Assembly: GCA_951406725.2 (NCBI GenBank)
Contig: OX597833.1
Coordinates: 10,478,001 to 10,542,000 of the forward strand
Direction: 5' to 3'
DNA length: 64,000 bases
Origin: Octopus vulgaris
Taxonomy: Eukaryota
Under the pieces are notes generated by a model, which was not told the DNA's origin, did no database searches, and worked only from the letters and a program-made list of their open reading frames with translations. The position numbers and the translations under genes are program-made. This document shows, in pieces, positions 7,716 to 60,451 of the stretch. The first letter of the stretch is position 1; each line of letters begins with the position of its first letter.

Positions 7716-8160
7716 TGACTTTTGTTAAGAAATTATTAAAATAAACTATTTTTCATAACACCAACAATCGCGCAATTGTATCTGTTATATAGTTCCAGGG
7801 AAATAGGATCAAGTAACGATGATGACGCTAACGATAATGACCTTATCTTAAATATATTAAGTGCAGGCATTTGTTGCTTCTGTGATAATGTTAGTAACTA
7901 GGTTAGATGGCTTAGCTTTGTTAAACTGTACTAGAAGTTTTGTTAGTATTTCGTGTGTAATATAGATATACAGATGTATGTATATATATTTGTGTGTGTG
8001 TATATATATATATATATATATATATATATACACACTCACACAGATATGTATACATACACTAATACATCTATTTTCACACACATACATAAACACAAATATA
8101 CATATGTGTGTATGTGCATGTATATATATATATATTTTCTCTCTTGTTTTTTTCTGTGTA

Positions 8161-8198
8161 TCTTTCTGTCGAAGAGCGTAGGCTCGAAACGTAAAAGA
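8161..8198 (+). ncRNA. Minimal type-I hammerhead-like ribozyme motif in a short element (~8135-8290) inside (TA)n
   Basis: tcttt-CTGTCGA-a-gagc(gtag)gctc-GAAA-cg-TA-aaaga: stems I and II pair; core has an A6>U variant. Confidence 0.6.
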
Positions 8199-11100
8199 CT
8201 TTTTCTATTCCTGAGCGCTATACTAATACATTTGTTTGTACTCCACCTGCCTTCGTCTTTTGTTTATTTTCGTAAACTTTCCCATTTTTATATATATATA
8301 TATATATATATATATATACACACACACACACACACAGATATATATATACATACACTAATACATATATTTTCACACACATACGTAAACACAAATATACATG
8401 AGTGTTTGTGTGTGTGTATATATATATATATATATATATATACACACACACACATACATACACGCCTTTACTTTCAGTCATTTGATTATATATATATATA
8501 TATATATATATATATATATATATGTATGTATATATACACACACACACATACATACACGCCTTTACTTTCAGTCATTTGATATATATATATATATATATAT
8601 ACACACACATAGGCATCAATTTATTTGAGTAAATCTATCAAGGTGGTGCTCCAGCATGGCCACAGTCCAGTGACTGAATCAAACAATAGCAAAAAAAATA
8701 CCAGCATGTAATGTATTTTCATTTGTTCTTTGATGTTTTTTAATCCTCTGTAGTAATTATTATTAATTTCAGTGGACATAAAAAGGTTTTGTAATTAATT
8801 AAGAAAATCCACATTAGGTTAGGTTTTCTCAATGAAATGCATAGTAGGGCCCAGGATGGCATGAAAAACTCCTGGGGTTCTACTTTTAAAGAATACCATA
8901 AAAATTTATTTTATTTTTAAAAAAAAAATTGAAAATTAGGAATAATTTCTGGTTGACCCTTTACCATTTAAAGCAAAGTTCAAACTGGCCAGGTCTAGCC
9001 TCTCACACCTACCTTACAATCATCATCATCGTTTAGCGTCCGCTTTGCATGCTAGCATGGGTTGGACGGTTCGACTGGGGTCTGGGAAGCCAGAAGGCTG
9101 CACCAGGCCCAGTCTGATCTGGCAATGTTTCTACGGCTGGATGCCCTTCCTAATGCCAACCACTCCGTGAGCGTAGTGGATGCTTTTTACGTGCTACCGG
9201 CACAGGTGCCAGGCGAGGCTGGCAAACGGCCACCAATGGATGGTGCTTTTTATGTGCCACCGGCATGGGGGCCAGGGGAGGCTGGCAAATGGCCACGAAT
9301 GGATGGTGCTTTTTATGTGCCACCGGCACGGGGGCCAGGCGAGGCTGGCATGAGGCCAGTCGGGGCAGCGCTGGCAACGGCCACGTTCGGATGGTCATTC
9401 TAAAAATAGACAGCAACATCCTTGAAATCTCACAGCAATGAGACAATACATGATTAATTAAAAACTGAGTGAATAAACAAGCTTTAGATTTTGGGGAGTA
9501 ACTTCAATGCGAAATGGTTAATGGCCAGCCACTGCTTCATAACCTTCTGACATAGCGTAGGAGTGGTTGTGTGGTAAGTAGCTTGTTTACCCAACCACAT
9601 AGTTCCGGGTTCAGTCCCACTGCATGTCACCTTAGGCAAGTGTCTTCTACTATAGCCTTTGGCCGACCAAAGCCTTGTGAGTGGATTTGGTAGACGGAAA
9701 CTGAAAGAAGCCCGTCGTATACATGTATATATATATATATACATATGTATGTGTGTTTGTGTGTCTGTGTTTGTCCCCCTAGCATTGCTTGACAACCGAT
9801 GCTGGTGTGTTTACGTCCCCATTACTTAGCGGTTTGGCAAAAGAGAGCGATAGAATAAGTACTGGGCTTACAAAAGAATAAGTCCCGGGGTCGAGTTGCT
9901 CGATTAAAGGCGGTGCTCCAGCATGACCGCAGTCAAATGACTGAAACAAGTAAAAGAGTATAGCACTTGGCTTTGGTTTCTAGTATTGGACTGTTGCCAT
10001 GCTGGAGCACTGCCTTCAAGGATTTTAATTAACTGTTTAGCATTCACATTGTTCTGTCAAAAGCAAGGCGGTAAGATGGTAGAATCCTCAGCACGCTGGA
10101 TGAAATGCTTAGCAGTATTTTGCCCGTCACTACTTAGTGGCATTTTGTCAGTTTTTACGTTCTGAGTTCAAATTCAACCGAGGTCGACTTTCATCCCTTC
10201 GGGGTCGATAAAATAGGCTCCAATTGAGCACTGGGGTCAATGTAGTCGATTTGTCCCCTTCTCCGAAATCACTGACCTTTTACCAAAATTTGAAAGAATT
10301 ATCAACCTTAGCAGTATTTCATCTGCCGTTAAATTCTGAGTTCAAATTCTGCCAAGGTCGACTTTGCCTTTCGTCCCTTCGGGGTCGATAAATCAAGTAC
10401 CTGTTGCATGCTGTGGTCAATCTAATCAACTGGCCCCCTCCCCAAAAATTTCAGGCCTTGTGCCTAGAGTAGGAAAAAATACACACACACACACACACAC
10501 ACACACACATACACAACAGACTTCCACAGTTTCCATCTACCAAATTCATTCACCAGAAATTACTTGCCCTAGGCCCAATGGCTAGAAAATACTTGCACAA
10601 GGTTCCATGCAGTGGGACTGAACCTGGAACCATGTGGTCACAGATTGAGTTTCTTAACCACATGACCATGACTGCAACTCTTTTTTTTTTTTGTTTTTTT
10701 TTTGTTTATTCTTTAACTCTTTAACTTGTTTCAGTCATTAGACTCTGGCCATGCTGGGGCACCACCTGAAGAATTTTTAGTCAAAACAATCGATCCCAAT
10801 ATTTTTTTATTTTTTTATTCTGGTACTTATTCCATCAGGTCGCTTTTGCTGAACCGCTAAGTTATGGGGGACGTAAACACATAACACTGGTTGTCATGGT
10901 GATGGGGTACAAACACACACACACACACACACATATATATATATATATATATACATATACACGATGGGCTTCTTTCAGTTTCCGTCTACCAAATCCACTG
11001 ACAAGGGTCTGGTCGGCCCGTGACTATAATAGAAGACATTTGCCCAAGATGCCACGCATTGTGACTGAACCCGGAACCATGAAGTTGGCAAGCAAGCTTC

Positions 11101-11780
11101 TTACTCCACCGCCACTCCTGTGCTTGTTTAACGATCATTTTGTGGAGGTTTTCAAAAGTTGAGATCACGATTTCGTTGATGAAATTTGGAATAATTAAAA
11201 CTTTTGCTTTCCACAGATTTCCCTAAATTTAAAAAACATTGCAAAATCTACATACTTGGAAATTTGTTTCTGTAAATTCTCTCTTTTCCTTGTTTCAGTC
11301 ATTTGACTGCGGCCATGCTGGAGCACCGCCTTTAGTCGAGCAAATCGACTCCGGGACTTATTCTTTATAAGCCCAGTACTTATTCTATCGGTCTCTTTTG
11401 CCGAACCGCTAAGTTACGGGGACATGAACACACCAGCATCGGTTGTCAAGCAATGCTAGGAGGACAAACACAGACACACAAACACATACATATATATATA
11501 TATATATATATATATATATATATATACAAAATAAGAAAATGGAGAAATACATCCAAATCAAATATATCAATTACCAGATAATACCCAATCACATACTTTA
11601 TTAAACCACCACATAAGAAACTTTAAGATCAAACTAGCAGTATACTGGATATATGTTATCCCATGGAGGGTTGCATTTACAACCCCTATCTCAATTTGTA
11701 TATATATATGTATGACCTCGTGAAGACTACCTGCAGTTTTTTTTTCCTCTGTCCTCCCGTCTCGGGATCTTTCTTTTTCC

Positions 11781-11817
11781 TATGTTTCCGACGAAGAGCT
11801 CCGCTCGAAACGTCATA
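11781..11817 (+). ncRNA. Degenerate minimal hammerhead motif (same family as 23417)
   Basis: tatgttt-CCGACGA-a-gagc(tcc)gctc-GAAA-cg-TC-ata; core U4>C and stem I is imperfect. Confidence 0.45.
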
Positions 11818-12040
11818 AGCTCTCCTTCTTCCATTTTCCTGAGCGCCTAATAATAATAATACTGTAATTGTTCCACGTGTTGTTGTTTTTTCTGTTTTCC
11901 CGTTTGGATTAACCTTATATATATATATATATATATATGTATTAGCCAGCAGGTTTTTGGGATCTGACGGTACGCCATAAAGTAAACCCTTTATCGATGG
12001 GAAACCTAAGGTAATCCCATAAACTGGCCTTGCCCTTCTT

Positions 12041-58881: not shown

Positions 58882-59186
58882 CTAGCAGTATCGCCTGGCG
58901 TTGCTCGGGTTTGTAAGGGAAATAACTATATAAGCATTTTTGGAGAGTTACTCCCCTTATATAACCCAAGCAAAAATCATTAAAAATGCGGGAAAATGAT
59001 TGTAAATTTTTTTAAATCGTAGACTCATCGTAGACGTGCGCTAATACCCAGAAGGGCTCAATATGAATGACGACTATAAGATACCCGCTTTTCGTTAAAC
59101 TGCACCGCAAAATGTGGGAGTAGTTAGGAATCTAAATCAGAGGAGACAGAATCTCACACACACAACTTCAATTTTATATATAAAGA
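58882..59186 (-). mobile_element. Non-autonomous Helitron (same subfamily as 17976)
   Basis: a|ctagcagtatcgcctggcgttgctcggg ... tatataaaga|t. Confidence 0.82.
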
Positions 59187-59295
59187 TTAGTGCTTGCACA
59201 AGACAAAAGTAAAAACATCACACACACACAAACACGCCCCTATGCGATGGGCTTTTTACAGTTTCCATTATTGATTTCTCTCTTTTCTTTTCTAG

Positions 59296-59418
59296 ATAAT
59301 CGTTATTTTGATTGGAACTAACAACCATGACCACACTGCTGAAGAAGTCTCTGAAGGAATCATGAAGATTGCTCAGACAATCGCTGAGAAACAACCTCAA
59401 AGTAATATAATAGTTATG
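59296..59418 (+). CDS. PAFAH1B2: PAFAH1B2/3-like internal coding exon
   Basis: ttcttttctag ... gtaaga; 123 nt; IIVILIGTNNHDHTAEEVSEGIMKIAQTIAEKQPQSNIIVM has the SGNH block-III GTNN motif. The first coding exon and the last exon (GLLPRG...DxxH) were not found in the window. Confidence 0.95.
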
Positions 59419-59848
59419 GTAAGAATCTTTGCGCCTCACATGTCTTTTGAAAAGTCCCCATTCCTATCTAGGTGCCATCGTGTACCTCTTTACTCTTTTA
59501 CTCTCTTTTACTTGTTTCAGTCATTTGACTGTGGCCATGCTGGAGCACCGCCTTTAGTCGAGCAAATCGACCCTAGGACTTATTCTTTGTAAGCCTAGTA
59601 CTTATTCTATCGGTTTCTTTTTGCCAAACTGGTAAGTTACAGGGACGTAAACACACCAGCATCGGTTGTCAAGCGATGTTAGGGGGACAAAGACAGACAT
59701 ATACACACACACATACATATATATATATATATATATATACAAAAATTCAGGGTGAATACTTGATAATTGTTAGCACCTGTATATACCATTTAGTGGTGTA
59801 GATGATAGAGTGTATATATCAAGATAAAAACATAATGCAAAGGATTTA

Positions 59849-59930
59849 GTGGTACATATGTTTCGGGCCTTTATTAGATGGTTTATAACATAATTGATGT
59901 AAATGTGTGTCTATGGCCTTCTTCAGCCGC
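59849..59930 (-). ncRNA. Type-I hammerhead ribozyme in an element (~59740-60005) inside the (TA)n spacer of a SINE
   Basis: Minus strand: gcgg-CTGAAGA-aggcc...ggccc-GAAA-catatg-TA-ccac; palindromic stem III, one stem I mismatch. Confidence 0.7.
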
Positions 59931-60451
59931 GTACAATTACTACTTCAAGGACATGTATTACATTATAAGTTTTACGTTGGGGTTGCAAATCCTCATAGTC
60001 GCGTACACATATATACGATGGGCTTCTTTCAGTTTCCGTCTACCAAATCCACTCACAAGGCTTTGGTCGGCCCGAGGCTATAGTAGAAAACACTTGCCCA
60101 AAACGGACTTCTTTCAGTTTCCGTCTACCAAGTCCACTCACAAGGCTTTGGTCAGCCCGAGGCTATAGTAGAAGACACTTGCCCAAGGTGCCGCGCAGTG
60201 GGACAGAACCTGGAGCCATGTGGTTGGTAAGCAAGCTACTTACCACACAGCCACTCCTACGCCTATGCTTTTTACTGTGTATTGATTACACTACAAGACA
60301 ATTCTAAAGTCTTTCTCCATTAAGTGTGGGAGCAGTTGAGGCATTCAACCATAGAAAATCTGGTGTTATTTTGGCATGTGATCTACAACTTAAAGGGAGA
60401 TTACTTTAGGTTATTTTTTTAGTTCATTTATCAATTTCTAAAAACACTTAA

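Follow-up and report, generated by a model that had tools for sequence, protein, structure and literature searches.

The stretch of DNA analysed here (the window) covers 64,000 nt of the Octopus vulgaris genome (G000:C20:10478001-10542000, from a 2.80-Gb assembly) and is rich in microsatellites and in repeats resembling short interspersed nuclear elements (SINEs). An initial annotation had listed nine hammerhead ribozyme motifs beside (TA)n tracts, and all nine were found again where it had placed them and on the same strands. We attribute them, with a probability of about 85%, to the 3' ends of pseudo-long terminal repeats (pLTRs) of Penelope-like elements (PLEs) inserted by (TA)n and to non-coding tandem units that likely use the enzymes of Hydra-type PLEs, by the mechanism proposed below. 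The hammerheads are new families of a known element type; pLTR ribozymes and (TA)n targeting have already been published.

Folds were counted with a type-I descriptor (conserved core, stem I of at least 3 and stem II of at least 4 pairs, palindromic stem III), using 40 block-wise dinucleotide shuffles as controls. Four folds with an exact core were present in the window (23423+, 25329-, 40747-, and 50978+), against a shuffle mean of 0.025 and a maximum of 1. With one core mismatch allowed, there were seven folds against 0.175 per shuffle, two of which (50864+ and 23676-) look like chance. The full descriptor was passed by four folds and failed by 8161 (A6U) and 11781 (U4C, damaged stem I). The initial description of the folds was thus right in the main but too regular: the CUGANGA core is exact in five of the seven complete folds, 8161 reading CUGUCGA and 11781 CCGACGA, and stem I is damaged in 11781 and 59849. 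The adjacency to (TA)n held in all nine elements, a (TA)3 lying no more than 18 nt from the 3' end, compared with 6.5% of random window positions; the ends were set by comparison with other copies and, where they meet the TA tract, partly by eye.

The statement that most of the motifs are unrelated in primary sequence went too far. Elements 8161, 11781, and 23417 are 75-78% identical, 49246 and 50971 are 74% identical, and 40675 is likewise related, having a post-ribozyme module in common with the latter two. The window motifs accordingly fall into family A (8161, 11781, and 23417), a B/B'/D superfamily (50971, 49246, and 40675), and families C, E, and F.

Family A is represented by three pLTR remnants on the forward strand. 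The first (8137-8290), of subtype A2, contains a minimal hammerhead (8161-8198) with a CG stem III, a CUGUCGA core (A6U) at 8166-8172, and a predicted cleavage site after 8193. The other two are of subtype A1: an older copy (11733-11916) with a CCGACGA core (U4C) and a damaged stem I, and a copy (23340-23544) whose minimal hammerhead is intact (core at 23423, predicted cleavage after 23449). The A1 copies show 79-80% and 86% identity, respectively, to both pLTRs of a PLE at another locus (L234), which consists of a pLTR, a broken open reading frame (ORF), an untranslated region (UTR), and a second pLTR. Its ORF is of Neptune/Nematis type with a GIY-YIG match, and its long, CA-rich 3' UTR was reached from an upstream extension present in two loci. 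An A2 copy lies ~560 bp downstream, on the same strand, of a related Neptune/Nematis-type ORF with reverse transcriptase (RT) and GIY-YIG domains (L236). Translations and DNA of both parents contain a CX2-5CxxC linker zinc finger, CCHH, and DKG. In the linker zinc finger and CCHH, as in the minimal CG-type hammerhead with an extra base between A9 and stem II, they are like known Neptune/Nematis PLEs (PMC4209133; PMC8557442), from which family A differs by U4C (most A1 copies), A6U (A2), the long CA-rich 3' UTR, and a single 3' end, seen in 12 bait-selected loci. A tight family A pattern had 15,232 exact matches genome-wide (control 0), that is, one per ~184 kb, compared with two in the 64-kb window. 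Judged from these alignments, the A1 window copies are 5'-truncated 3' ends of autonomous PLEs, and the A2 window copy is likely the 5'-truncated 3' end of a long autonomous PLE as well.

A full PLE body was also recovered for family C. Its window copy (25040-25422, reverse strand; core at 25329, predicted cleavage after 25256) has a long, tailed end and is 98% identical to both pLTRs of locus L083, in which they flank an open 895-aa ORF with RT and endonuclease (EN) domains; several of the 12 fetched family C loci continue upstream into the endonuclease. The protein, which had no Pfam match and 104 database homologues among 8000 candidates scored, contains RWL, DKT, YRDD, CNLC, and CPH (CxxC..E..N..CxH) and lacks CCHH. 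These features can be compared with the published Hydra diagnostic set (RW(K), DKT, no CCHH, and CxxC/CxH around E and N; PMC8557442), which, together with a C-terminal GIY-YIG EN, family C has in common with the Hydra clade including Hydra-1_Obim. Family C is also like this clade in targeting (TA)n and in carrying, close to its 3' end, a hammerhead in sense orientation whose stem III has 3-4 bp. By eye, the family C protein also resembles the printed N-terminal half of Hydra-1_Obim. On the other hand, family C is longer (895 aa, with a repeat unit of ~3.6 kb, where the Hydra criterion is <3 kb), lacks the CxCX5C linker, thereby departing from both of these Hydra criteria, and has another hammerhead. 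The L083 ORF (P0001) has two long low-complexity inserts, at residues ~490-560 and ~630-770. One of them stands in place of the usual linker zinc finger, and family C nonetheless has its ends at (TA)n, which weakens the view that target choice is dictated by the linker. On this comparison of sequences, the window copy is a 3' pLTR of an autonomous Hydra-type PLE. The initial annotation could not confirm that such elements had been described in this lineage; a hammerhead-bearing Octopus bimaculoides element that targets (TA)n, Hydra-1_Obim, is in the supplement of PMC8557442.

Other Hydra-type families occur outside the window. Family G, absent from the window and without a Pfam match, is a young autonomous family with many open frames of ~720 codons and a sense pLTR hammerhead (e.g., L130:683-4445); its protein has RWK, DKT, CRLC, and CRH and no CCHH. 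The CxCX5C linker is present in G, many copies of which have F at the second C, and in an F-linked copy. Among the 25 proteins placed in a tree, a single clade (100/99) united C, G, H, and 18 of the 104 homologues and excluded the family A parents and a 781-aa family; the tree includes no named reference, and the likeness to Hydra-1_Obim is by eye. This genome has several Hydra-type families (C, F, G, and H), compared with one listed for Octopus in PMC8557442. Family H (L138, L139, and L140) has a 3' UTR of more than 1 kb of degenerate (TA)/(TG) microsatellite; with such a UTR, as with the CA-rich UTR of the family A parent L234, movement would spread microsatellite-like DNA. The 781-aa family is Neptune-type, young, and abundant (open frame of 781 codons, L090:1745-4090), and its 3' UTR contains repeated units with GATGACGTC and a deviant hammerhead before the (TA)n end.

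Families F and E remain. Family F is present as a 3' end (59742-60005, reverse strand; core at 59926, predicted cleavage after 59853) with one stem I mismatch at a position that is paired in the family. A broken Hydra-type EN was found 2.3 kb upstream on the same strand in one of the three extended copies (L210), and the window copy is likely the 5'-truncated 3' end of a long autonomous PLE, as far as this linkage can tell. Family E (23585-23880, forward strand) retains a hammerhead 3' half, GAAA-CACGTG-TC, at 23607-23618; other copies have the whole fold with a 13-bp stem II, and copies have at least 700 bp of upstream sequence in common. Taken together, the initial link of the motifs to Penelope pLTRs and retrozymes is upheld, by the PLE bodies for A1 and C and by the non-coding tandem units of family B described next, and the search for full-length PLEs with the same termini that it suggested yielded L083, with its open ORF, and L234, with its broken one. 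What finds no support is the radiation of unrelated mini-elements: the majority of the window copies derive from long autonomous PLEs and have lost their 5' part (A1 and C, and likely A2 and F).

Only B, B', and D behave as short non-coding tandem units and are retrozyme-like. The window holds 1.5 units of family B (50560-51308, forward strand; core at 50978, predicted cleavage after 51068, long end at 51307). Each unit has a length of 493 bp, a GC content of 35%, and a longest ATG-initiated ORF of 41 aa. A B-specific 25-mer had 808 exact matches genome-wide (control 0); copies are ~99% identical across the genome, and the top 40 matches are ~100% identical and lie on many chromosomes. B insertions are head-to-head arrays with their 3' ends facing outward into (TA)n, one arm reaching at least 15 units. 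The predicted fold of the circular monomer (-132 kcal/mol, 67% paired) is more stable than those of 40 shuffles (z -4.0). Family B' forms a head-to-head pair in the window (49018-49498; minus arm 49018-49297, plus arm 49291-49498), both arms of which are long, with a hammerhead 3' half at 49261-49246 in the minus arm; elsewhere it is a tandem unit of ~467 bp. Family D, a non-coding unit of ~435 bp in partial tandem, lies at 40575-40835 on the reverse strand (core at 40747, predicted cleavage after 40680, short end). B' and D are older than B and share its post-ribozyme module, whereas their stems I-III differ and yet pair. Across the homologous subfamilies B, B', and D and the L136/L145 copies, stems that differ yet pair are what is visible of the covariation claimed initially, a comparison for which we claim no formal statistic.

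Every multi-copy family except A has two fixed 3' ends, and in two-armed insertions the 3' ends face outward into TA. Measured in nt past the predicted cleavage site, the short and long ends are at 132/234-240 in B, 142/~228 in B', 70/220 in C, ~112/204 in D, 184/260 in E, 42/111 in F, and 42/112 in G. In all 12 two-armed B insertions with both outer ends visible, one arm ended at 132-134 nt and the other at 234-240 nt. The long arm was what the baits for C, E, F, and B' picked out, which leaves the second arm as the informative one in these families. The second arm was short in all eight C loci (six at 69-72, one at 63, and one at 36), in 10/10 two-armed insertions of F, and, for family G, in 3/3. 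Hallmarks of PLE insertion are present, namely partial tandems, an inverted 5'-truncated copy, and a tail at one end, and the hammerhead lies in the pLTR on the sense strand in L083, L234, L236, and family G. The tails measure 70-150 nt in the window families, compared with the 30-40 nt described elsewhere (PMC3846280; PMC8557442). Tail folds more stable than those of shuffled sequences were obtained for B, C, D, and the L088 copy (z -2.3 to -3.2). A closing stem joining the two start sites was considered as a general feature and rejected, as it was predicted only for B and the window B' copy. Even-numbered stem III palindromes gain almost nothing as a hairpin (0 to -0.2 kcal/mol) and form a strong predicted duplex (-7 to -16 kcal/mol), in agreement with the initial suggestion that palindromic stems III favor dimers; the CG type is at -1.7 kcal/mol.

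These observations can be accommodated in a single scheme. At a (TA)n target, the GIY-YIG endonuclease would nick the top and the bottom strand. Reverse transcription primed from each nick would begin at one of two fixed positions in the element RNA, which lie 70-150 nt from each other, so that the two primed reactions would yield one long and one short arm; early termination would leave mostly short 3' remnants. In the transcript of a B array, the palindromic stem III would let adjacent hammerheads dimerize and release monomers; ligation would close these into circles, which a Hydra-type enzyme would then copy by the rolling-circle route. Published work offers parallels for several of these steps (PMC4209133; PMC8557442; PMC11167929; PMC7229834): GIY-YIG nicking of AT-rich DNA on both strands, two internal RT start sites, to which the PLE tail is tied, and extension of both target strands in vitro (PMC11167929); a preference of Hydra, Neptune, and Naiad elements for (TA)n (PMC8557442); the folding of dimers by way of a palindromic stem III (PMC4209133); and the proposed mobilization of retrozymes by PLEs through circles (PMC7229834; bioRxiv 10.64898/2026.07.22.740005). 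We infer from sequence that the two nicks use the two start sites, that a Hydra-type protein carries the B-type units, and that B arrays come from circles. Evidence for a Hydra-type partner is indirect: hammerhead type, ends, and target agree, and there are two chimeras. One, L091, links a fragment of a Hydra ORF to a D unit in the same orientation; the other, L088, links a B-type pair to a C 3' UTR, also in the same orientation, with a short B-type end on one side and a long C end on the other. The fullest version of this proposal, in which B and its relatives are retrozyme parasites of Hydra-clade PLEs and one circular RNA is copied by two RTs from two (TA)n nicks at sites ~105 nt apart, is put forward tentatively, at less than even odds.

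Rolling copying of one circle would imply that the units of an array carry the variants of one template, and 5 of the 13 B arrays had a private substitution fixed in every covering unit; in three of these, L024, L216, and L220, both arms carried it. Long linear array transcripts, or unequal crossover after insertion, would need no RNA circle, and we regard such an origin as possible though rather improbable. A homogeneous donor array would likewise hand a variant to every unit, short unit runs repeat in L213 and L214, and contigs of three runs (guessed to be RNA) that span the head-to-tail joint of B fit array transcripts or DNA as well as circles; moreover, DNA-level repeat expansion is discussed for retrozymes, with cleavage in only one of nine dimers (bioRxiv 10.64898/2026.07.22.740005). 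Yet unit-specific changes in B are not in register between loci, the recurrent ones lying at or near homopolymer runs, arrays at numerous unlinked sites show ~99% uniformity in both of their arms, one arm having at least 15 units, and purely linear copying would presumably tend to shorten arrays.

The inverted arm may also have another origin, in fold-back self-priming on the antisense template rather than in two target-primed reactions. Self-priming has been proposed for head-to-head Penelope structures of rotifers, with a tail on one inverted pLTR (PMC3846280), and would equally place shared template variants on both arms. However, nearly all insertions have a short arm that breaks off at the same fixed base, directly against TA, and the two internal starts and the extension of both target strands were obtained in vitro with another PLE (PMC11167929); we therefore consider self-priming doubtful here, while two target-primed reactions remain our preferred account of the paired arms.

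An independent radiation of short, SINE-like ribozyme units without a PLE body, mobilized by long interspersed nuclear elements, which is the initial picture in its strict form, is far less probable. It could draw on the many A copies that look like ~205-bp units between TA tracts and on the families for which a parent was not found (E, B, B', and D), but it is already refuted for A1 and C, which continue into full PLE bodies, the 3' ends displayed lack poly(A) tails, and the two-end, head-to-head architecture is identical to that of the autonomous C and G. That the folds are chance products of AT-rich repeat DNA can practically be dismissed, for although single copies (8161 and 59849) fold no better than shuffles and Rfam gave no match at gathering score, the excess of exact folds over shuffles, the 15,232 and 808 exact genome matches against control counts of 0, and the constant position and strand of the motif within each family say otherwise.

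Several results weigh against the PLE and retrozyme interpretation or parts of it. An Rfam search of the window gave zero hammerhead matches at gathering score, and an E-value search had no hammerhead family among the 150 of 275 matches listed, which proved to be microsatellite noise. For superfamily-wide MAFFT alignments of the tails and of the hammerheads, RNAalifold predicted only 5 and 6 pairs and missed the stems, which MAFFT had misaligned. Tail folding was no better than that of shuffles in E, F, G, and one of the two B' copies. Of the B' two-armed loci, 8 of 13 were short/long, two (including the window copy) were long/long, and three had odd ends. The eight B arrays without a private fixed variant are silent on the number of templates. 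The ribozymes themselves raise doubts: most A1 copies carry U4C, and the A2-type copies listed have U at conserved position 6, with position 7 variable and the stems kept. Since changes at positions 4 and 6 gave low activity (PMC3088659), some of these ribozymes may be weak or dead, and hammerhead cleavage was dispensable for insertion in vitro (PMC11167929). As to partners, no PLE ORF match was found within ~6 kb upstream of E in three copies, and none of the Hydra families examined (C, G, and H) had an autonomous element whose pLTR resembled B, B', or D. The L091 and L088 chimeras could be nested insertions.

Several candidate partners of B, B', and D were rejected. The 781-aa Neptune-type family, the main yield of a GIY-YIG Pfam search, has an unrelated 3' end; families G and H, found through a Hydra N-terminal search, have different pLTRs; and the B-like units beside G in L131, L136, and L145 are set off from it by TA tracts or other repeats and are read as separate insertions.

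Among known systems, B resembles metazoan non-LTR retrozymes (PMC7229834; bioRxiv 10.64898/2026.07.22.740005), which are likewise non-coding, low-GC (<45%) tandems with one type-I hammerhead per unit. Its 493 bp compare with 170-400 nt in invertebrates (PMC7229834) and with 51-972 bp in the later survey (bioRxiv 10.64898/2026.07.22.740005), whose four invertebrates are three insects and one anthozoan. B is set apart from these retrozymes by the length of its stem II loop, by a stem III built on a 10-nt near-palindrome, and by its arrays, which run head to head in two arms and terminate in (TA)n at one fixed short and one fixed long end; the accessible parts of the two sources do not report this array architecture for retrozymes. 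Chlamys MRC1 (PMC8557442) is, like B, a multicopy head-to-tail non-autonomous PLE derivative; however, in the Chlamys non-autonomous elements the 3' end is similar to that of the autonomous partner and a hammerhead is mostly absent, whereas a partner of B with a similar 3' end was not found. A literature search, thin on subscription papers and conducted without Repbase, returned no paper on octopus retrozymes or two-armed retrozyme arrays. A study of O. vulgaris repeats (PMC13282606) lists 31 recently active Penelope-like families and, in its accessible part, does not use the word ribozyme; its repeat library may already contain the families described here.

Remnants of this kind extend beyond the nine motifs. 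Two inverted remnants had been missed in the window: a head-to-head pair of another hammerhead family (32049-32325), with a decayed 3' half at 32181 and TA tracts at both outer ends, and an inverted pair of a B-superfamily relative (3114-3345), truncated past the ribozyme. The flanks of fetched loci contain at least nine more hammerhead groups, each distinct in its stems and palindromes and most of them followed by a TA tract within 270 nt. The initial density of about one per 7 kb is plausible for remnants, at one per 8.8 kb over 760 kb, in a sample made of the flanks of fetched loci, with bait families and window-overlapping and redundant loci dropped, that is biased to repeat-rich DNA. A tblastn search of three PLE proteins against the window gave zero matches, which indicates that no PLE body lies inside it. 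The other features of the window are a probable amino-acid permease exon at 62750-63139 on the forward strand (PF13520, E 3.6e-5, below the cut-off), because of which the window may be largely intronic, a 28-bp minisatellite of ~72 copies with 96% matches at 54452-56461, and a long inverted-repeat element with terminal arms, resembling a miniature inverted-repeat transposable element, at 13349-13556, which had a spurious miRNA match in the Rfam E-value list.

Tandem and inverted insertion of PLEs, the role of their hammerhead, and the mobilization of retrozymes by PLEs are named as open in PMC8557442, PMC11167929, and PMC7229834. The octopus genome offers a ready test set for these questions, with intact young Hydra-type ORFs (C and G) and the young non-coding family B with its two mapped start sites, and the fixed core change of A2 provides a natural control for the need for the ribozyme. 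In repeat-rich regions, a layer of remnants with a density of perhaps one per ~10 kb need no longer be annotated as unknown repeats but can be labeled PLE ends. Family B in particular is a test bed for the PLE reaction and for the link between retrozymes and PLEs; if it is indeed a parasite of the Hydra clade, it would constitute direct genomic evidence for a retrozyme-PLE partnership and for the origin of the PLE tail and inverted repeats.

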